Assembly (NCBI GenBank): GCA_030646565.1
Contig: JAUSLA010000024.1
Location: forward strand, 1 to 42,827
DNA from: a bacterium
GTDB lineage: Bacteria > Patescibacteriota > Minisyncoccia > Minisyncoccales > RBG-13-42-11
Direction of reading: 5' to 3'
DNA length: 42,827 nt
The notes under the pieces are model-generated. The model made no database searches. It was not told the origin of the DNA and saw only the letters and a list, made by a program, of their open reading frames with translations. Positions 27,983 to 37,852 of the stretch are shown here, one piece after another. The position numbers and the translations under genes were made by a program. The stretch's first letter is position 1; every line of letters starts with the position of its first letter.

Positions 27983-29311
27983 TTATAAATATCGCTTCAG
28001 CCATTTTACGGTCTGTTGAATCAATTTTTCCTGTGATTGAAAATCCTCAAATTTGTGATTCGTTTTTGATAAAACAATCAAAGATATGTTTCTGTAGCGT
28101 TTTTTTAACTCATAAGACAATTCCAAAGGAACATCTTTGTCTTCTTTGCCGTGGATTATTAAAATCGGCGATCTTAATTTGGAAAGAATGCGAGAATAGT
28201 CTTTATTTTTATTTTCGAGATAATAATCCCTGCCAATTTCTTTTCCTCCTTTATATATTACGCCATTAGAGTTAATCTCTTTTCTATCTTCCATGGTATA
28301 CCATTTTTTTAACAATTCTTTTTGATTAAATGCCTGACTCCAAAAAACCAATGTTTTGACCGGTATTTTATATTGACTTAAAAACTGGCTTACCGCTACG
28401 CTTCCCAAGCTTGCAGCCACAAAAGCTAATCTTGTTAAATCTACATCAACCTCTTTTTGAATGGCTTTGAACGCCGAATTTAAATCGGCGGCTTCATTTT
28501 TCACCGTTATCTCGCTTGGTTCGCCTTCGGAATCGCCGCACCCTTCAAAATCAAATCTGAAAGCGCAGATTCCTTCTCTCTGAAGAACTCTGGCCAGTTT
28601 TACAAACTTTCTGTCTGTTTTACTGTTTTGAAAACCGTGGCAGATTATTACTAGAGGCGGTTTTTGTTTTTCCGGTAGATGCAGAACTCCCGCCAACTCT
28701 TTTCCCCTCTCATTTTTAAAAGTGATTGGGATTTCTCTTCTTGGTTTTTCATTTTTTCTCTCAATTTCTTCAATAACTCTTTCCACCAGCTTTTTGGGAT
28801 TTTTATCTTTTACAATAATGGCTTTGATTTCTTTACCGGTTCCGCCCTTTAAATCGGCTTCAATTTTTAAAATTTTCTCTACGATGCTCCCCAGTCCTTC
28901 CAGTATTCCAATTACTTTATCTTCATGATAAGCGATTGAAAATTCATTTAATGCGCCTATGCCGCCGCCAATAAAGATTGCCCCATCGCATTCCGTAATT
29001 GACAAGGCGTTGCGGCCAATTTTCCCTTGGCCTGTAAAAATCAACTCTGTATCGTTAGGGGGGTAAGGATAAGAAATGGGAGGTTCCAAATGTTCTCTTA
29101 AATTTTTAGCGGGTGAATAGCCAAAAACAAAACCGCCTTGTTTTGAAGCGGCTTTAGCGGCAATATCTGCCACGCCCATGCAAGCGCCGGTTACTAAAAT
29201 ACAATTTTTTTTAGCGATTTCTTTGCCAATAATTTCCGCGGCTTTCATTATTTTATCTGGCAATCCCCTGCTCCGGCCGGCTTTTCCCATTACTCCGATT
29301 TTATATCTCAT
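27983..29311 (-). CDS. TIGR00725/LOG-like domain fused to an alpha/beta hydrolase
   Basis: N-terminus: IGVMGKAGRS...ILVTGACMGVADIAAKAA...FIGGGIGALNEF. C-terminus: VIICHGFQ, AASLGS (nucleophile elbow), IIHGKEDKDVP and NHKF. Confidence 0.7.
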   Translation of the reverse strand: MRYKIGVMGKAGRSRGLPDKIMKAAEIIGKEIAKKNCILVTGACMGVADIAAKAASKQGGFVFGYSPAKNLREHLEPPISYPYPPNDTELIFTGQGKIGRNALSITECDGAIFIGGGIGALNEFSIAYHEDKVIGILEGLGSIVEKILKIEADLKGGTGKEIKAIIVKDKNPKKLVERVIEEIERKNEKPRREIPITFKNERGKELAGVLHLPEKQKPPLVIICHGFQNSKTDRKFVKLARVLQREGICAFRFDFEGCGDSEGEPSEITVKNEAADLNSAFKAIQKEVDVDLTRLAFVAASLGSVAVSQFLSQYKIPVKTLVFWSQAFNQKELLKKWYTMEDRKEINSNGVIYKGGKEIGRDYYLENKNKDYSRILSKLRSPILIIHGKEDKDVPLELSYELKKRYRNISLIVLSKTNHKFEDFQSQEKLIQQTVKWLKRYL

Positions 29312-30067: not shown

Positions 30068-30739
30068 TTATATTATAATATCTAACAGTTTTTTTAATTC
30101 TGAAATATCTTTAATAACGTAATCGGCTACTCCTGTTTTATTTCTCCTATTTATTAGTATTGTTTTTATACCGATTTTTTTGGCCGGAATAATATCCGTC
30201 TCTTCCTGGTCTCCAATCGCGATACAATATTCTGGTTTTATGTTTAATACCTTGATAATTTTATTGAATGCATTGCCAAATTCTTTACGGATATTTCCTT
30301 CGCCTGAAAATATATTATTATCGGTAAAAATATTTTCTATTTTTAATTCTTTTAATACATTCTTTATCCATACTCTTGGCGCATCAGAAACCAACGCCAG
30401 ATCAAAATTATTTTTAATCTTAAGAAGTTTGGTTCTTAACCCAAGATTAATTTTGATGTATTTTTGGGCTGAAATATTCCAAGTCGCGTTAAAATAAGCA
30501 TATCGGTCAATCTTAAACTTTTCTTCTAAACCAATACTTATACTCTCGTCATATTCCTTTATTATCTTTTTTAATATTAACTTTGCCTCTCTTTTAGTTT
30601 TATTTAATTTATCTATAATGTATTGTTCGGTATTTTTCAAAACCTCTTTATAAATTCCGGAGCGCTTAAAAGAGCCTCCTTTAAGCTTATATAACGTCCC
30701 GTCTAAATCAAAAATAATTAATTTTTTACGGTTTTCCAT
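30068..30739 (-). CDS. HAD-superfamily phosphatase (nucleotidase-like)
   Basis: LIIFDLDGTLY (motif I), LVSDAP and AIGDQEETDIIPAKKIG (motif IV). Confidence 0.8.
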   Translation of the reverse strand: MENRKKLIIFDLDGTLYKLKGGSFKRSGIYKEVLKNTEQYIIDKLNKTKREAKLILKKIIKEYDESISIGLEEKFKIDRYAYFNATWNISAQKYIKINLGLRTKLLKIKNNFDLALVSDAPRVWIKNVLKELKIENIFTDNNIFSGEGNIRKEFGNAFNKIIKVLNIKPEYCIAIGDQEETDIIPAKKIGIKTILINRRNKTGVADYVIKDISELKKLLDIII

Positions 30740-30767: not shown

Positions 30768-30795
30768 GGCGATGAGAACGAAGTCCTTATCGCCC
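30768..30795. repeat. single hairpin unit (R10, degenerate)
   Basis: GGCGATGAGAAC-GAA-GTCCTTATCGCC. It overlaps the BtpA stop codon. Confidence 0.55.
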
Positions 30796-31611
30796 TATTC
30801 GGTCAATAAAATTTTTAACTTTTTCTTTACTAATTCTCTGCTTCCAAGTTTTTATATTAACTTCATTGTTTTTAGATGCGCCCTCTTTAAGAGAAGTGCT
30901 TACTATCGCGCCGTTCGCGTATTTTAATAATTCGCTGATATTTTCTTTATCAGCGCCGCTTCCAACCAGTAATGGAAAATCAGCCACAGCTTTTCTGACT
31001 GCAACCAGATTTCTTAAATCCGGAGCGTCACCCGTCCATTTTCCGGTTAGAATTAGGGAATCGGCGCCGCTTTTAATCGCTTCAAGCGCAGATTTCTCAA
31101 TTGGTCTCTTATTTAAAAGCTGGGCATGCTTAACTTGAATATCGACTAATAAAATAATATTTCCAGCTTTTATTTTTTCTTGAAACTCCTTAACTTTTTC
31201 TGGATTGCCATTTATAATACCGTAATTAGTTTTTACTCTATCAACAAACACCGGTATCCTAATAAACCTTGCTCCTATTGTTTTAGCTATAGATAAAGCG
31301 GCTCTAAAATCATTCCATAGAACGCTTACGCCAATAGGCAGGTTAGTTTCTTTTTTGATTTTTTCACCCAAAAAAGTCATAATTGCGACCGTTTCAGGAC
31401 CGACTTTTTCTGTATGGGGAATATCGTAATTATTCTCAAAAATTATTCCGTCCACTCCCCCGCTTTCAAAAGCCTTTAAATCTTTTAAAGCGTTATTTAA
31501 TGAAACCTTAAAACCGGGAAATTCAGGGTATCCCAAAAGCGGCGGAAAATGAATTGCGCCAATAATAATTCCGCTTTTTTTCTTAAAAATTTTATAAAAT
31601 TTATTTTGCAT
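30787..31611 (-). CDS. BtpA/SgcQ-family TIM-barrel protein
   Basis: IIGAIHFPPLLGYP, GGVDGIIFENNYD, IGARFIRI, VDIQVKHA and VGSGA...NGAIVSTSLK track BtpA-family blocks. Confidence 0.8.
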   Translation of the reverse strand: MQNKFYKIFKKKSGIIIGAIHFPPLLGYPEFPGFKVSLNNALKDLKAFESGGVDGIIFENNYDIPHTEKVGPETVAIMTFLGEKIKKETNLPIGVSVLWNDFRAALSIAKTIGARFIRIPVFVDRVKTNYGIINGNPEKVKEFQEKIKAGNIILLVDIQVKHAQLLNKRPIEKSALEAIKSGADSLILTGKWTGDAPDLRNLVAVRKAVADFPLLVGSGADKENISELLKYANGAIVSTSLKEGASKNNEVNIKTWKQRISKEKVKNFIDRIGR

Positions 31612-32308
31612 GCTGTGTTAAAAAATTCGCGGCCTCATTGGTAGCGGTTTTTCCGGCTATTTCAATATCTCCGTTAGTTCTAATAAAACTTAAAACAAAG
31701 TTAGCAAAAAAAGTATCCCCTACTCCGATTGTATTATGAACCTTAACTATTTTCGCAGGCTTAAAAACAAATTTTTTATTTTTATAGTAAATTATCGAAC
31801 CGCTTCTCCCCTTGGTTATTATCAAACATTTCTTCTTTTGTTTTTTCATCATATCTCTGGGAATATATTTTAGTTCTTCTTTAGTTCCTTTAAGGCAGAA
31901 AAGTGAGGATATTATTTCTTTAGATGGTTTCCATTGTTTTTTCTTGCCAAACTTTTTTATATCGCGGACATAGCCCTGAATATCCAAAAATATTTTTCCT
32001 TGAAATTTAAAAATACCGCTTAAGTCAAATTCTTTATAGATTGTGGATATTAAAAGAAAATGTGTTTTAATTTTTTCGAAATTTGTTTTTTTTGGTTTTG
32101 GAATTTTTCTAACGCGGCCGATTTCACCTTTTTTAGTCAGTAAAATTTCTACTTTCACGCTTGGACCAGAAATAAGTTTAAATAAGACATTTTCTTTTCT
32201 AAAAACATTTGTAAGATATAAAGCCGGCCCGCCCTTTTGAATGGAAATAATCTTTCCTTTCTCGTTCAATATTTTATCTGTACTAAAAGAGGAGCAAACG
32301 GTAATCAT
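31601..32308 (-). CDS. short PfkB-family sugar/nucleoside kinase
   Basis: C-terminal NTIGVGDTFFANF (DTxGAGD-type motif). 235 aa. Confidence 0.7.
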   Translation of the reverse strand: MITVCSSFSTDKILNEKGKIISIQKGGPALYLTNVFRKENVLFKLISGPSVKVEILLTKKGEIGRVRKIPKPKKTNFEKIKTHFLLISTIYKEFDLSGIFKFQGKIFLDIQGYVRDIKKFGKKKQWKPSKEIISSLFCLKGTKEELKYIPRDMMKKQKKKCLIITKGRSGSIIYYKNKKFVFKPAKIVKVHNTIGVGDTFFANFVLSFIRTNGDIEIAGKTATNEAANFLTQHAK

Positions 32309-33447
32309 AGTTTTTCATTAATGCTCTTTACGATTGCTTTTAATAGTTTTGAGTACCTTTTAATATCTCTAATTTTAATTATTTCTTTTTTAGGATCCAT
32401 GTGAGATAATTTGGGATTTCCAGGTCCTAATATTATAGTGGGGATATTTTTCATATTCATCAAAGAAGTTTCGGTAAAAAATGTGGTGGTTGATTCTTTA
32501 TATTTAATATTTGCATCCTTGAACGATTTTTTAATTATCTTTTTAATCTCTTGGGGAACGTTTGATTTAGTCGGATTAAAACCAAAGGATTTAATTTTTA
32601 TGCCCTCTTCTTTATGAATTTTCGAAGAAACTATTTTATTAAAAAGTTTTTTGTATATCATGTTCGGTTTTACTGTTCGCAAATTAAAACTCATTCTGAA
32701 AAATTCCGGCATCTGATTATCCTTAACGCCAGAATTTATTGTAGTTATAGCTCCGATTGTTTGACCTAAATTTTTATCTTTAATTTTTCTTGATTTATCC
32801 AAAAACTCAATAATAAACTGGATAACCGGAGCCATTTCTTCGATAAGTAAATTTTTTCCGGGATAGGCGCTATGTTTTTCTTCTCCCTTTTTCTCTAAGA
32901 CATACCCCAAAACTCCTCGAAAAAAAGTCTGAACTTCGAAATTGCTTGGTTCTCCGTTTATGGCTAACAAAACTGGAAATTTAGCATTAAGCTTTAAAAA
33001 ATTTTTTATTCCCGCAAAAGAATTGGCCTCTTCATCACCGGTTATCAAAAGAGCGGGAGGATATTTCAAAACGCTTGAATCTTTATAAAGAGAGATAAAA
33101 GCATTTATCATGCCGGCCAAAGCTCCTTTCATATCTACCGCCCCTCTGCCACTTATCGTTTTTGAATTTATTTTCGGCTTGGAGAAATTTGCGCTAGGCA
33201 CTGTATCAATATGCCCCTGGAATAAAACAAAAGGTCCTTTTAATTTAGGATTAAACGCTATTAAATTGGCGTGATTATTTTTTTTTACAACAGGATAAAT
33301 TTGTAATATATGATTAATGCCTCTCTTTCGCAAGAACAAAGAAACCTCCTTTAGGCAGGGAATAATATTTTGACTGGGTTTTTCATCAGTATTATCCGTA
33401 AGGTATTTGAATAGTATATTTAGTAATTTTATAACGTTATTTCGCAT
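32305..33447 (-). CDS. M20-family metallohydrolase (ArgE/DapE-like)
   Basis: FQGHIDTVP, GRGAVDMKGALAGMI and ITGDEEANSF. Confidence 0.8.
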   Translation of the reverse strand: MRNNVIKLLNILFKYLTDNTDEKPSQNIIPCLKEVSLFLRKRGINHILQIYPVVKKNNHANLIAFNPKLKGPFVLFQGHIDTVPSANFSKPKINSKTISGRGAVDMKGALAGMINAFISLYKDSSVLKYPPALLITGDEEANSFAGIKNFLKLNAKFPVLLAINGEPSNFEVQTFFRGVLGYVLEKKGEEKHSAYPGKNLLIEEMAPVIQFIIEFLDKSRKIKDKNLGQTIGAITTINSGVKDNQMPEFFRMSFNLRTVKPNMIYKKLFNKIVSSKIHKEEGIKIKSFGFNPTKSNVPQEIKKIIKKSFKDANIKYKESTTTFFTETSLMNMKNIPTIILGPGNPKLSHMDPKKEIIKIRDIKRYSKLLKAIVKSINEKL

Positions 33448-33588: not shown

Positions 33589-34218
33589 TCAGATACGGCT
33601 TCTGCTATTGACGAAGGTGAAGGGGAAGATGAGAATAAGATTCTCATCGCCTACAGCTATTGTTTTGAAGCCTAAATTTTTAGCAGTAATCAAGTTGGCT
33701 TCCTCGTTATCAGCATACCATCGCACCTTATAAGAAGAAACAGCTAGTTGCAAATTCTGAAAGGCGCGTGGGTCTGGTTTTTGGTAGCCATTATTTTCGA
33801 ACATGCCAAAGATTTGTACAAAAAGATCTTCTATTCCTATACATTCAAAAATATTCTTGGCAAAAGCTGATGGATTGTTGGTATGAACATAAAGCGGCGC
33901 ATCTAATCGTAAAAGAGCTTCGCGAAGTCGGTCATTCCTTCTGACGCCGTAAAATAAGGGATCTATCGCAAGATAAGTTTTCTTAATAAAGTCTTCTGTA
34001 TCTTGAATTATTCCCTCGCGCCAAAAAACCAATAAAGTGCTATGGATATTATGGCGCTTGAACAGCTCCCGCCGTTTTTCCAAAATTTGCTCTGCGCTAA
34101 TTGAGGCCATTCGAGCCAGAAGCGTAATCATTCTTTCGGTTATCGCTCTTTCAAACTCCGGCAGGCAATTATATAACGTACCATCATTATCGAACACATA
34201 GGCAATCTGTTGCGCCAC
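33589..34218 (-). CDS. HAD-superfamily phosphatase
   Basis: YVFDNDGTLY motif I. The GTG at 34218 follows AAGGAGGGCAAAA; the track ORF starts at a TTG at 34272. The C-terminal 19 aa are repeat-encoded. Confidence 0.75.
   Translation of the reverse strand: MAQQIAYVFDNDGTLYNCLPEFERAITERMITLLARMASISAEQILEKRRELFKRHNIHSTLLVFWREGIIQDTEDFIKKTYLAIDPLFYGVRRNDRLREALLRLDAPLYVHTNNPSAFAKNIFECIGIEDLFVQIFGMFENNGYQKPDPRAFQNLQLAVSSYKVRWYADNEEANLITAKNLGFKTIAVGDENLILIFPFTFVNSRSRI
33610..33652. repeat. mosaic hairpin unit (R11) inside the HAD gene's 3' end
   Basis: gacgaaggtgaaggggaa-GATGAGAAT-AAG-ATTCTCATC-gcc. Confidence 0.7.
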
Positions 34219-34248
34219 TTTTGCCCTCCTTATTTTAGAATATACAAA

Positions 34249-34285
34249 GGGGCGGCAGCGATAATTAATCAATCATGCCACCCCT
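34249..34285. terminator. GC-rich hairpin between the TrpD-like and HAD genes
   Basis: GGGGCGGCA...TGCCACCCC (9 bp, one G-U pair) flanked by AAA and TTT. Confidence 0.4.
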
Positions 34286-34290
34286 TTAGT

Positions 34291-35667
34291 TTAAATAATC
34301 GAGGGCTTTCCTCCGCTTAACTCTACGTAATGGGAAAGCGTTTGCCAAGCTCTTCCAGAGACAATAGCCCGACGACACTCCTGAAAACATTCGCAAAGAT
34401 ACTTTTTGTTAAGACCATCATTGCCGACAGCATCCGGACGGCTCAAGTAGTTATGGGCAAACAATCCTAAGGCTGCATTCATTGCCAAGAAATCAAGCTG
34501 ACACCCGCAACCATCTTGAAGCGCTTGACTATTGGCTTGCTGAAGAACAGCCCTTTCATTCTCTAATAGAATAGAAGCTGGGTTAATCGTTGTCCCAAAA
34601 TCACTAGGTCTAAGCAAAAATGTACCTAAAAATTTACCTTGATGAGCCATAGCTACTACTGAAGCATATGGAGAAACTTCATCCAAAACGGCATGTTTTT
34701 TAACCTGCTGAAAACTATTCGGATTTATTGACATACCTGCCTCGTTTAAGCCGCAGACAACTGCAATGCCACCTATTTCTTGCAACTCTTTCTGGTGCAA
34801 AAGAACGTAAGCTTTGGCGATCACTGAAGGATGAACTTTTTCGTTTACCCCCATAATCCGGCTAATTTTCGTTCTTGGACTAATTGGCGGACTCATTGGC
34901 CCGGTAATATGATTAATCGTTTCCATCATGATTAAATGAGAAGCGTCATGAACGGTTTTTACCAAATGAGCGTCAAGGTAACAAAATTTGTTCTGCTGCC
35001 AAATATTAATGATTTCTTCTTCAGTCGTATAATTCGTTCTGGCTCCAAAAAGTTCAATCGCTTCGGTGCTTCCGACAGCCGAAGTATTGGCGTAAGACCC
35101 GTGTTTAATTACAGGTAAGCCAAGGCTTGCCAATATCACGGCACTCAACGTGGAAACATTGATTGTTTTTTTTCGTGTTCCGTTCACCGAAAAACCGACA
35201 TCTGCTCCCATTCCGCAAGTATCAATAACTTCTCCCAAATCTAACTGAATTACAGTGTCCATTAATGTCGCGGCAACGATTCCGGCTACTTCTTCTGACG
35301 TTAATCCTTTAAAGGATTCTTTACCGGCCATTAATTGCAGGAAAGCGATGCCCTGACCAAGAGCTCTGCTTTCTGTAAAACCGTTCTGCAAATTTGCCGG
35401 TAGCAAGTCCTTGCAGATCGAAAAAATATCATTATTCGTAGCGGCTAACGTATAGAACATTCCGCAAAAGGCTTCCTCAAAGCTAAGGCTTAGACCATGC
35501 TTTACCTTTCGGTCCAAGGACTCCAAATGAATTTTGGCCAATTGCGAAACTATTTTTTTATTTCCGTCCAATCTAGCCGACACATTATATCCCCGGGCTA
35601 AACTCTCTCGCGCTTCTTGTTTAGCTCGCTTTTCTCCGTTAAGCAGAATCCGTGAAATACCTGTCAT
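34291..35667 (-). CDS. divergent glycosyltransferase family 3 protein (TrpD / nucleoside phosphorylase-like), 458 aa
   Basis: DTCGMGADVGF..TINVSTLSAVILASLGLPVIKHGSYANTSAVGSTEAIELFG parallels the TrpD block DTCGTGGDG..NISTxxA..A..G.PV.KHGNRxxSS..GSAD.LEALG, but with altered catalytic-loop residues. Confidence 0.7.
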   Translation of the reverse strand: MTGISRILLNGEKRAKQEARESLARGYNVSARLDGNKKIVSQLAKIHLESLDRKVKHGLSLSFEEAFCGMFYTLAATNNDIFSICKDLLPANLQNGFTESRALGQGIAFLQLMAGKESFKGLTSEEVAGIVAATLMDTVIQLDLGEVIDTCGMGADVGFSVNGTRKKTINVSTLSAVILASLGLPVIKHGSYANTSAVGSTEAIELFGARTNYTTEEEIINIWQQNKFCYLDAHLVKTVHDASHLIMMETINHITGPMSPPISPRTKISRIMGVNEKVHPSVIAKAYVLLHQKELQEIGGIAVVCGLNEAGMSINPNSFQQVKKHAVLDEVSPYASVVAMAHQGKFLGTFLLRPSDFGTTINPASILLENERAVLQQANSQALQDGCGCQLDFLAMNAALGLFAHNYLSRPDAVGNDGLNKKYLCECFQECRRAIVSGRAWQTLSHYVELSGGKPSII

Positions 35668-35712
35668 TTCTCCCCTCCCCTTTTTATTTTCAAAGAGCTA
35701 CCGAGAAGTCTT

Positions 35713-35980
35713 AAAAACAAAAAACTCCTCGTCTCTGCCGCATAAATAAATTATGCTTCAGGGACGAGAAGTCATCTCGCGGTGCCACCCCGATTTCTCT
35801 AATCAAATTTCAAAACGAAATTTGACGAGCTCTTCATCGACTTTGGTTTTACCAGTATCGATTATCCTATGGTTACGGAGGAAGCCGGGTTTCTACTGTT
35901 GCAGAAGCCACCTTGTCCCATTTACAGGACGAATCGGGCCCAATCCCCTTTTAAAAATTTCAGGGGACCCAATTCATAGG
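35713..35980 (-). promoter_or_regulatory. T-box leader (tRNA-sensing riboswitch) with an antiterminator/terminator switch
   Basis: Minus strand: AAATCGGGGTGGCACCGCGAGA (T-box core at 35791-35778). Antiterminator: GGG / bulge GUGGCACC / GCGAGA-UGACU-UCUCGU / CCC. The competing terminator ACTTCTCGTC...GACGAGGAGT is followed by TTTTTTGTTTTT. Confidence 0.8.
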
Positions 35981-36011
35981 TTTTAAATTATTATCATAAA
36001 AGCTATTTTTA

Positions 36012-36039
36012 ATAATAGCAGACCAAGCAACTTTGTCAA
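36012..36039 (-). promoter_or_regulatory. sigma70-type promoter driving the T-box leader
   Basis: Minus strand: TTGACA, 16 nt, TATTAT. Confidence 0.6.
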
Positions 36040-37255: not shown

Positions 37256-37852
37256 ATGATAAAAAACTTGCCTATCGAATTAGAATTGAGAAAATTAGAC
37301 CTTACAGAAAAGGAAGTAAAAGTATATTTAGCCGGTTTAGAGTTGGGACCGAGTTCGGTTCAAAAAATTGCCGAGCTTGTCAACATTGCAAGGCCCACAA
37401 CTTATGAAATTATCAAGCGCTTGGAAAAAAAAGGACTTTTTGAGGAGGTTAAAGAAAAAAGGAAAAGATTATTTTCCGCCAGATCTCCAGAAAACATTTT
37501 AGGATTATTGAGAACAAAAAAAAGAGAAATTGAAGAAAAAGAAAGAGAATTTATCAGGATTATTTCTGCTTTAGAGCCAAAATATTCTAAAGAAGGAATT
37601 AAGGTATTCAAAGGAAAGGAGGGATTGAGGGCATTAGGAGAAATCATTTCTTTCAGCCGGGTTCCGGAAATTATTATTGTTAACCGGGAAAATAATCCAA
37701 TAAATTATAAGAGAATATATCGGGATATCAAAAAAAGATTAGGCGAGGTTAAAGTTAAAGAAATAAACAGCGGACTTGATGGAACTTTGATTATTTTTGA
37801 CAGAGTGGCATATTTCCCCAAGAAAAAACAAATTGGTTTTCTGCTCGGCTGA
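37256..37852 (+). CDS. TrmB-family transcriptional regulator
   Basis: LDLTEKEVKVYLAGLELGPSSVQKIAELVNIARPTTYEIIKRLEKKGL is the TrmB N-terminal wHTH. Confidence 0.8.
   Translation: MIKNLPIELELRKLDLTEKEVKVYLAGLELGPSSVQKIAELVNIARPTTYEIIKRLEKKGLFEEVKEKRKRLFSARSPENILGLLRTKKREIEEKEREFIRIISALEPKYSKEGIKVFKGKEGLRALGEIISFSRVPEIIIVNRENNPINYKRIYRDIKKRLGEVKVKEINSGLDGTLIIFDRVAYFPKKKQIGFLLG

Follow-up and report, generated by a model that had tools for sequence, protein, structure and literature searches.

The window analyzed here is a stretch of 42,827 nt from contig JAUSLA010000024.1 of assembly GCA_030646565.1, and the element under study is the untranslated leader of about 340 nt that runs, on the minus strand, from a promoter to the ATG of a gene for a long TrpD-like protein. 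With high probability this leader is a transcriptional, tryptophan-specific T-box riboswitch, a reading that forms part of the overall best explanation, together with an operon that appears to belong to a tryptophan regulon of the candidate phyla radiation (CPR) and with the functions proposed below for its products. T-boxes of the CPR/Patescibacteria are of several architectures; one of them, a transcriptional form whose Stem I is truncated and whose specifier lies in a bulge, is missed by standard Rfam annotation. In the literature nothing was found on T-boxes in the CPR, nor on BtpA (encoded further down the same operon) in connection with TrpD or tryptophan, and T-boxes of the CPR are not discussed in TBDB.

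Coordinates are window positions and the features lie on the minus strand, unless marked otherwise; labels such as L175 or L062 denote loci within the comparative set, which comprised 61 genome loci, 7 loci from long contigs and 80 metagenome loci. Some of the metagenome contigs derive from organisms already represented in the genome set. Relatives of the long TrpD-like protein were found only in metagenome-assembled genomes (MAGs) of the CPR/Patescibacteria type, a few of them binned under other names; the TrpD-like protein of L062, used as a query on the metagenomes, gave no matches. 'Class A' denotes the leader architecture of the window (12 leaders in the alignment of the 5' domain), and R1 is a covariance model built on the antiterminator domain. 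Covariation was assessed by pair counting in MAFFT alignments under an author-specified structure, with 500 shuffles and slid 3' partners as controls.

Identity of the leader

A sequence-only reading of the window had proposed a T-box upstream of the TrpD-like gene, to be checked with the Rfam model RF00230. At gathering thresholds Rfam gave no match across the whole 42.8-kb window. A permissive-filter scan of the leader, by which weaker matches were found, returned a full-length RF00230 match (model positions 1-219, window 35986-35757, 37.5 bits, E = 7.4e-7). The proposed check thus fell short of the gathering score (93 bits), but the match is significant, and dozens of genomes have one at the orthologous position. 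Orthologous leaders yielded 30.4 (L002), 31.3 (L003), 40.3 (L001), 52.8 (L049), 59.5 (L024), 65.8 (L029), 73.9 (L039), 90 (L038), 94.3 (L032) and 94.8 bits (L042), the last two exceeding the gathering score. Because the orthologous leaders span about 30-95 bits, the window leader is best read as lying at the divergent extreme of a series in which some leaders meet the Rfam threshold. Together with the covariation described below, this bears out the proposed T-box. The features of the leader, all on the minus strand, are as follows.

36012-36039: sigma-70-type promoter, TTGACA (36039-36034), 16 nt, TG-extended TATTAT (36017-36012); 11 of 12 matches
35713-36005: T-box leader RNA between the approximate start site of transcription and the last base of the terminator U-run; RF00230, fold z-score, covariation
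35981-35978 with 35913-35910: outer helix P0, ACCU with AGGU; both-side changes in all 4 pairs, with 100% of cells paired across 12 leaders
35974-35968 with 35938-35932: Stem I basal helix, AAUUGGG with CCCGAUU; both-side changes in 6 of 7 pairs
35944-35967: Stem I upper helix, UCCCCU/AGGGGA (35967-35962 with 35949-35944); both-side changes in 4 of 6 pairs
35939-35943: specifier bulge UUGGG, between basal and upper helix on the 3' side; invariant in 12 of 12 class A leaders
35915-35930: extra hairpin 2, GUCC-UGUAAAUG-GGAC, located after Stem I and ahead of the 3' strand of P0; 3 of 4 helix pairs covary
35888-35909: Stem II, GGCUUC/GAAACC, with the conserved loop UGCNNNAGUR (S-turn-like AGUA); both-side changes in 6 of 6 pairs, RF00230 alignment
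35865-35887: Stem IIA/B pseudoknot, CGG/CCG hairpin, loop UCCU with downstream AGGA; IIA 97% and IIB 92% of cells paired
35797-35832: Stem III, purine flanks AAGAG (5') and AA (3'); RF00230 alignment, fold
35760-35791: antiterminator; covariation and R1 match (34.7 bits, E = 3.5e-6)
35713-35772: intrinsic terminator (35772-35724) followed by U6GU5 (35724-35713); folding energies
35665-35680: Shine-Dalgarno sequence GGGGAGGGGAG (35680-35670) and ATG (35667-35665); sequence

Promoter and expression platform

The leader folds far more stably than its dinucleotide shuffles (z = -6.2). Its promoter is present as the sequence-only reading had placed it; shuffled sequence contains on average 1.0 promoter-grade matches, the same as the single match found, so that the promoter alone proves nothing. 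The T-box core GGGGUGGCACCGCG occupies 35791-35778. Helix A1 pairs GGGG with CCCU (35791-35788 with 35763-35760), the T-box bulge UGGCACC comprises 7 nt (35787-35781), and helix A2 pairs GCGAGA with UCUCGU around the loop UGACU (35780-35764), with a G-U pair at its base (G35780-U35764). A G-U pair in this place and purines flanking Stem III are hallmarks of the discriminator, and the flanks of the window's Stem III fit the RRRxG-Stem III-AA motif (PMC7583486).

In 28 leaders the antiterminator domain parses as A1, a UGGNA(C/U)C bulge, A2 and then the overlapping terminator. Paired cells make up 90.9% of this alignment, both-side changes occur in 8 of 11 pairs, and 0 of 500 shuffles reach the score (the compared leaders are related sequences, so that this and the shuffle figure for the 5' domain are not probabilities). 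With slid 3' partners pairing falls to 42-58%. Compensatory pair types include AAGG/CCUU, GAGG/CCUC, AGGG/CCCU, GCGG/CCGC and GCCU/AGGC; even among related sequences, so many independent pair types would be hard to explain without a real antiterminator. Of the 67 loci, 41, the window included, have an antiterminator placed by R1 upstream of the TrpD-like gene, as have about 46 of the 80 loci of the metagenome set.

The strands of the terminator helix, ACUUCUCGUC and GACGAGGAGU (35772-35724), overlap the antiterminator in such a way that the 3' strands of A2 and A1 form the 5' strand of the terminator (shared stretch 35772-35760). The two structures differ in predicted folding energy, with -28.6 kcal/mol for the terminator vs -15.0 kcal/mol for the antiterminator. 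A simple consensus terminator scan of the region did not report this terminator, because its apical part is long. The Shine-Dalgarno sequence is free and lies 33 nt beyond the U-run, and no translational control by its sequestration is found in the window leader. Antiterminator, competing terminator, U-run, Shine-Dalgarno sequence and the start at 35667 are thus all present where the sequence-only reading had put them, the first of them now with covariation behind it.

Two observations from the same scans concern other elements. The leader of L018 (4668-4990) combines a terminator with a complete 5' domain of class A, including the UUGGG bulge, Stem II and the pseudoknot, yet R1 detects no T-box core in it; it may use a different or degenerate expression platform. 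A weak RsaE/RoxS match on the plus strand of the window (35652-35734, 25 bits, E = 0.055) is probably due to chance, as the sequence matched is the C-rich complement of the Shine-Dalgarno sequence together with the complement of the terminator.

5' domain and specifier

The sequence-only reading had been unable to fold Stem I and had left the specifier unassigned; covariation in the 12 class A leaders resolves the former and points to the latter. In this alignment 96.5% of cells are paired, 24 of 34 pairs are changed on both sides, 0 of 500 shuffles reach the score, and the slid controls give at most 58% pairing. The 5' strand of P0 is followed by UGA (35976-35974), conserved in class A, which would form the 5' half of a kink-turn (K-turn)/GA motif; where the 3' side of a K-turn would lie, the window has the inserted hairpin 2, flanked by UC and A. 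A codon-neutral specifier test that defined Stem I from this UGA was confounded, since in class A the helix can also extend in another register (UCC with the GGG of the bulge); covariation favors the bulged register. In the RF00230 alignment Stem I measures 59 nt in the window vs 86 in the model. The apical loop of its upper helix varies in length and sequence among the 12 leaders (a GAAA tetraloop in L006), and because this loop is short and so variable, the elbow-binding platform must be absent. The pseudoknot covaries in L010 (GUCUU/AAGAC) and L019, with one compensatory pair in IIB.

The specifier is read, from the comparison of leaders, as UGG (Trp) at 35942-35940, followed by G35939. Among all leader classes UGG is the only common triplet; the UUG and GGG frames are not common to them. 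In the leaders inspected, UGG stands directly before the 3' strand of the loop-closing helix with one base (G or A; U in WWE3) or two bases (AA/AG, Microgenomates-type) in between, in contexts such as GAAAU-UGG-A, GAACA-UGG-G, AGAA-UGG-G, UAG-UGG-U and GGGU-UGG-AA. A codon-neutral test on 28 leaders (any triplet, then 1 nt, then a helix of 4 bp or more) was too permissive to separate triplets (UGG 26, GGG 25, GAA 24). The other UGG, which the sequence-only reading had tentatively noted in an AAAUGGG context (35920-35918), falls within the variable hairpin 2 (loop and 3' strand) and is not the specifier. The loop sequence of this hairpin is not conserved and holds UGG in 4 of about 15 class A leaders (window, L005, L011, L012), where it could be a chance or a lineage-specific feature.

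At its variable position the T-box bulge carries mostly C, otherwise U, and both pair with G73, which is present in 24 of the 28 tRNA-Trp genes found in the module loci. The earlier suggestion that UGGC implies a discriminator G, with tRNA-Trp as a candidate, agrees with these genes and with the UGG specifier.

Related leaders and trp operons in the CPR

Leaders of the TrpD-like gene differ in Stem I. A long canonical Stem I (AGUA S-turn, AG bulge, distal loop) is found in L032, L038, L039, L040, L042 and L175, ultrashort hairpins with the specifier in the terminal loop in L024, L031, L047 and L049, and two more types in WWE3 and Microgenomates leaders. At the homologous place the other leader classes carry AAUGGG, AUUGGA, CAUGGG or UAGUGGU.

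With the TrpE-like protein of L062 as query, 15 CPR genomes with trpE were found. Several hold canonical trpE-G-D-C-F-B-A operons, e.g., L082 (9013-15658), L088, L084 and L081; the proteins of L082 score above the NCBIfam cutoffs (trpD 398, trpB 597, trpA 234 bits). In L079 (428-6383) trpE-G-D adjoins aroA-aroK-aroC. According to R1, a T-box stands immediately upstream of trpE in 7 of the trpE loci: the class A leader (UCCCC/GGGGA helix, UUGGG bulge) precedes trpE-trpG-trpD in L079, L083 and L091, and the remaining T-box leaders have the form CUGG-...U-UGG-A-...CCAG. In trpE loci without a T-box, a small TrpR-like gene precedes trpE. Complete trpEGDCFBA operons occur in MAGs of Levy-, Roizman-, Davies- and Kaiserbacteria.

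These canonical operons run against the usual assumption that the CPR does not synthesize aromatic amino acids, and the remark in the sequence-only reading that the genome is of a type not expected to make tryptophan was too strong, some members of the CPR carrying complete trpEGDCFBA under Trp T-boxes or a TrpR-like gene. Some CPR lineages thus hold full trp and shikimate genes, others only the variant module described below, clustered with the genes of tryptophanyl-tRNA synthetase (TrpRS) and tRNA-Trp.

Comparison with known T-boxes and specificity

In its mode of action the window leader resembles a class I (transcriptional) T-box. With canonical RF00230 T-boxes, including the Trp T-boxes of Firmicutes on trp operons and trpS, it shares the 7-nt UGGNACC antiterminator bulge and the competing terminator, the purine flanks of Stem III, Stem II with the IIA/B pseudoknot, a codon-like specifier that has one base after it, a bulge base that fits the tRNA discriminator, and a target in amino-acid supply. 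It differs from them in the short Stem I, in the specifier bulge, in the extra hairpin at the usual position of the 3' half of the K-turn, and in its CPR host. The actinobacterial ileS T-boxes, which have a truncated Stem I, likewise lack the elbow platform and possess Stem II and the IIA/B pseudoknot, both of which are essential for tRNA binding there; they are translational, sequester the Shine-Dalgarno sequence and present the specifier in a terminal loop (PMC7583486). The window leader departs from these in its intrinsic terminator with U-run, its free Shine-Dalgarno sequence and its specifier in a bulge. The truncated Stem I of this transcriptional form bears on models in which Stem II replaces the elbow contact.

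By default the terminator (35772-35724 and U-run) would form and the transcript would end ahead of the genes. Uncharged tRNA-Trp would pair through its CCA anticodon with UGG at 35942-35940, aided by Stem II and the IIA/B pseudoknot, and its free 3' end (G73-C-C-A) with UGGC (35787-35784) in the T-box bulge. This pairing would stabilize the weaker antiterminator, so that RNA polymerase would read into the operon. The tRNA-dependent read-through is inferred from these structures.

Several points weigh against a tryptophan-specific T-box: the 37.5 bits of the window leader stand against a gathering score of 93, the AG bulge and the distal-loop elbow platform are absent from its Stem I, a plain 5-nt bulge, opposite which no base is unpaired, holds the specifier in place of an S-turn-containing internal loop, the compared leaders are related to one another, and a tRNA gene search of the window found none, so that the genome's own cognate tRNA is not seen. 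A score below the Rfam threshold, a truncated Stem I and an empty terminator scan are also what a decayed, non-functional remnant or a mere look-alike terminator would give. This explanation is extremely improbable, as all functional elements are intact and held by compensatory changes across many genomes, the specifier and T-box bulges are invariant, and the architecture recurs upstream of trpE operons. Hardly more probable is a T-box that reads another tRNA, be it through UUG (Leu) or GGG (Gly) of the UUGGG bulge or through the UGG of hairpin 2. The 5-nt bulge can indeed be read in three frames, the codon-neutral search did not single out UGG, and hairpin 2 offers a UGG in four class A leaders; yet only UGG is common to all leader classes, the loop of hairpin 2 is not conserved, and the same leader type stands on canonical trp operons. 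Under bacterial identity rules tRNA-Leu has A73 and tRNA-Gly U73, which would need U and A, respectively, in the T-box bulge, and the UGGC/UGGU bulge fits the G73 of tRNA-Trp rather than either. Because the same leader type controls genuine trp operons in sister lineages, specificity for tryptophan can be regarded as settled as far as sequence analysis allows.

Operon and module

The leader is followed by six genes on the minus strand.

34291-35667: long TrpD-like protein, 458 aa, family-3 glycosyltransferase fold (PF00591)
33589-34272: HAD phosphatase, pyrimidine-5'-nucleotidase-like (TIGR01993, 59.9 bits, below cutoff)
32305-33447: M20 (ArgE/DapE-type) deacylase (profile matches; 7 of 67 loci)
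31601-32308: short PfkB-like sugar kinase, 235 aa (profile matches; 13 of 67 loci)
30787-31611: BtpA/SgcQ-family TIM barrel, candidate TrpF analogue (TIGR00259, neighborhood, fold match)
30068-30739: second HAD hydrolase, probable last gene of the operon (same strand, 47-nt gap)

BtpA accompanies the long TrpD-like gene in 58 of 67 loci, and TrpRS is present in 43 of 67 (TIGR00233, 254.8 bits vs a cutoff of 176.75). Less frequent companions in the 67 loci are an unannotated multi-pass membrane protein (16), an AstE/AspA-type deacylase (14), HAD (13), a nucleoside hydrolase (10), a TrpR-like protein (PF01371; 10, mostly without a T-box), a fusion of CM_2 with a methyltransferase (9) and a protein resembling pyridoxal phosphate (PLP)-dependent decarboxylases (8, usually right after TrpRS). 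A T-box only was detected in 39 of these loci, TrpR only in 8, both in 2 and neither in 18; control by T-box and by TrpR-like protein is nearly exclusive. Among metagenome loci of at least 8 kb, BtpA was found in 34 of 44 and TrpRS in 36 of 44.

A gene for tRNA-Trp(CCA) is present in 27 of 60 genome loci, in varying position and on either strand, where about 1% would be expected by chance for one given tRNA; among the metagenome loci of at least 8 kb that were scanned for tRNAs the count is 15 of 41. Examples are L006 1332-1405, L007 1282-1355 and 1552-1624, L014 4503-4578 and L033 2067-2142; the genes lie within a few kb of the module, sometimes as tandem duplicates, and several of them have A1-U72 or G1-U72. 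The window itself holds no TrpRS, TrpR or tRNA gene.

Chorismate-related domains recur in genomes without a detected shikimate pathway. The fusion of CM_2 with an S-adenosylmethionine (SAM)-methyltransferase stands beside TrpRS in L005, L012, L019, L043, L066, L067, L069 and others, and L062 has a standalone CM_2 (1186-1578); the fusion could be a CmoA-like, prephenate-using enzyme or something else. A gene with the low-molecular-weight (LMW) phosphatase fold (PF01451, CxGNIHRS, 173-182 aa) comes first after the Trp T-box in L175 (6451-6972), L158 (6445-6978) and L153 (7346-7894), in two of them ahead of the TrpD-like gene. A gene resembling tryptophan 2,3-dioxygenase (PF03301, weak, N-terminal part only) adjoins the module in L022 (3729-4853), L034 (5149-6036, minus strand) and L186, and a HisC-like aminotransferase gene lies near it in L008 and L023.

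Long TrpD-like protein

The protein is homologous to TrpD. Its TIGR01245 (trpD equivalog) score of 106.5 bits does not reach the cutoff of 199, and its orthologue in L175 scores 113.8, vs 398 and 382 bits for canonical TrpD of the CPR. The structures nearest by sequence profile are the TrpD entries 5noe (9e-25) and 1gxb (4e-24); an AlphaFold (AF2) model with a mean predicted local distance difference test (pLDDT) score of 91.6 gave, in Foldseek, only TrpD among the top 50 hits (template modeling (TM) score about 0.8 on the target). In hhalign the match to verified CPR TrpD has a probability of 99.5% and 28% identity and begins only at residue 121, which indicates that the N-terminal domain differs from that of TrpD. 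TrpD2/YbiB, thymidine phosphorylase and AMP phosphorylase were rejected as identities (NCBIfam at most 25 bits or no match; top structural hits all TrpD).

Compared with TrpD (TIGR01245; PDB 1gxb, 1zyk, 5noe), the family shares the fold, a homologous catalytic domain and the motifs GxGGD, NxST and DE, which bind phosphoribosyl pyrophosphate (PRPP), as well as KHG; in two loci its gene adjoins trpC-trpB-trpA or trpE-trpG. It differs by about 120 extra N-terminal residues and an insertion of 7-8 residues after GGD. The description of the product as a divergent, TrpD-like family-3 glycosyltransferase with altered GMGAD and KHGSY loops, encoded ahead of a HAD phosphatase, therefore matches what was found.

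BtpA

BtpA is a confident member of its family (PF03437, 218.7 bits vs a cutoff of 30; TIGR00259, 221.1 bits vs 153.4). In the PDB the best fold match of its structure model (pLDDT 88.8) is 4aaj, the TrpF of P. furiosus (E = 3.5e-10), with TrpA, ThiE and HisF next. With TrpF and other ribulose-phosphate barrels it has in common the (beta/alpha)8 barrel and the standard phosphate-binding site, and with TrpF the place of trpF in the series trpC-trpB-trpA-BtpA of L175; it is about 70 residues longer, and the family is annotated as a biogenesis factor of photosystem I or of membrane complexes. BtpA is not a member of the TrpF family, although it may have a like function. We know of no enzymatic activity demonstrated for the BtpA family.

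Proposed function of the module

The gene order of two loci bears on the function. In L062 a single strand encodes CM_2, a TrpE-like protein (best NCBIfam matches TrpE models, 387 bits, below cutoff), TrpG (174.8 bits vs a cutoff of 121), TrpRS, the TrpD-like protein, HAD, BtpA, a PfkB-like protein and GNAT. In L175 a Trp T-box with canonical Stem I (GAA-UGG-A) precedes the gene with the LMW-phosphatase fold and that of the long TrpD-like protein; hairpins resembling terminators and a small open reading frame (ORF) come next, and then tightly packed trpC, trpB, trpA, BtpA and HAD (283, 627, 294 and 208 bits for the first four, vs cutoffs of 260, 392, 102 and 153). No trpD, trpF, trpE or trpG was found within 7 kb. 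A hidden trpF was considered in L175 and rejected: the unannotated ORF encodes the protein with the LMW-phosphatase fold, and nothing but a small Cys-rich ORF lies in the 460-nt gap. The two steps lacking in L175 are exactly those for which a homologue of TrpD and a TrpF-like barrel could account. Genomes with canonical trp operons are, moreover, absent from the 61 module genomes, except L062.

On account of these two contexts and of this distribution, we tentatively read the TrpD-like protein as a variant anthranilate phosphoribosyltransferase and BtpA as an analogue of TrpF, at somewhat less than even confidence. With PRPP as donor, the TrpD-like protein would transfer phosphoribosyl to anthranilate or a closely similar compound, BtpA would replace TrpF (phosphoribosylanthranilate isomerase), and kinase, phosphatase and nucleoside hydrolase might feed ribose phosphate or PRPP. 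With a likelihood again somewhat below even, the pair would be an unrecognized non-orthologous replacement of TrpD and TrpF for tryptophan biosynthesis or anthranilate salvage, CPR-wide and under Trp T-boxes or a TrpR-like repressor. Far from being an oddity, the TrpD-like gene probably belongs to a variant of the tryptophan pathway. As a regulatory label, the T-box tags this unannotated, CPR-wide pair as tryptophan-related, and together with the contexts of L175 and L062 it gives BtpA a testable function. Were the replacement real, it would be the first enzymatic function for the BtpA/SgcQ family, so far known only as a 'photosystem I biogenesis' factor, and many presumed tryptophan auxotrophs of the CPR would keep at least part of the pathway.

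A number of observations count against the anthranilate-branch assignment. The GMGGD of the family reads GMGAD in the window protein, KHGSY stands in place of KHGNR, and a His takes the position of the Arg that binds the carboxylate of anthranilate; the residues N109, R110 and R164, which bind anthranilate in S. solfataricus TrpD, are aligned here to S, Y and H. BtpA shows no significant sequence similarity to TrpF, TrpA or TrpC of the CPR (hhalign probability 1.6% against verified CPR TrpF), and its fold match to TrpF is generic for phosphate-binding barrels. The evidence from L175 is a single metagenome contig. A tblastn search of the module loci (about 794 kb) with verified CPR proteins for trpF, trpB, trpA and trpC revealed none of the first three genes and, of trpC, no more than a weakly similar fragment in L069. 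Loci without BtpA (L020, L025, L026, L048, L057, L061, L070, L187, L226, L228, L229, L233), in which HAD and/or an inosine-uridine-type nucleoside hydrolase comes straight after the TrpD-like gene, are not explained by a TrpF analogue. In L017 HAD is fused to the TrpD-like protein.

Some of these observations are shared by a salvage function under a real Trp T-box, by which tryptophan or an aromatic precursor would be freed from a scavenged ribosylated, glycated or acylated conjugate, the TrpD-like protein running as a phosphorylase or pyrophosphorylase and BtpA, kinase, phosphatases and deacylases processing the sugar or acyl part. Most module loci lack trpC, trpB and trpA nearby, the anthranilate-binding residues are altered, BtpA and the combination of HAD with nucleoside hydrolase look like alternatives, and the accessory genes are of the salvage type (HAD nucleotidase, nucleoside hydrolase, PfkB-like, M20, AstE/AspA, GNAT, putative transporters). 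We nevertheless regard salvage as unlikely: the family retains the motifs for PRPP binding (GxGGD, NxST, DE), no candidate for the conjugate is known, and the contexts of L175 and L062 favor the anthranilate branch. Glycosylamines of amino acids hydrolyze spontaneously, and an enzyme for this step seems unnecessary. The tight linkage to tRNA-Trp (27/60 and 15/41 loci) and TrpRS could also reflect a service to these two rather than to tryptophan supply, by a tRNA- or nucleotide-linked reaction, or to another co-regulated aromatic pathway (pyridine nucleotide, kynurenine); the dioxygenase-like genes by the module in L022, L034 and L186, the PLP decarboxylase-like gene and CM_2-methyltransferase fusion beside TrpRS, and the resemblance of the HAD protein to nucleotidases would fit. 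Such a role is quite improbable, because the T-box and the TrpR-like repressor both signal a shortage of tryptophan, inducing supply genes in known systems, the core pair has no known tRNA-modifying domain, and the structure of the L175 operon speaks for the anthranilate branch.

Further observations

Two neighbors of the operon in the window do not recur with the module. Just 3' of the operon, 27983-29311 (minus strand) encodes a SLOG/LDcluster4 domain fused to an alpha/beta hydrolase, and upstream of the promoter, 37256-37852 (plus strand) encodes a TrmB-family regulator.

Further T-boxes were found upstream of a gene for a valyl-tRNA synthetase (ValRS)-like protein (MDKNFDPK...PPPNANDPLHIGHA) in Microgenomates-type loci, all on the minus strand: L046 1306-1342, L051 1377-1411, L053 297-350 and L055 723-774, as well as L223 1335-1369 and L234 2297-2350, the last two assigned by strand and position only. 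The leaders of the first four have an ultrashort Stem I, GUCUGA-CCAGUCA-UCAGAC, with GUC (Val) and A in the terminal loop. CPR bacteria thus employ T-boxes on aminoacyl-tRNA synthetase genes too.

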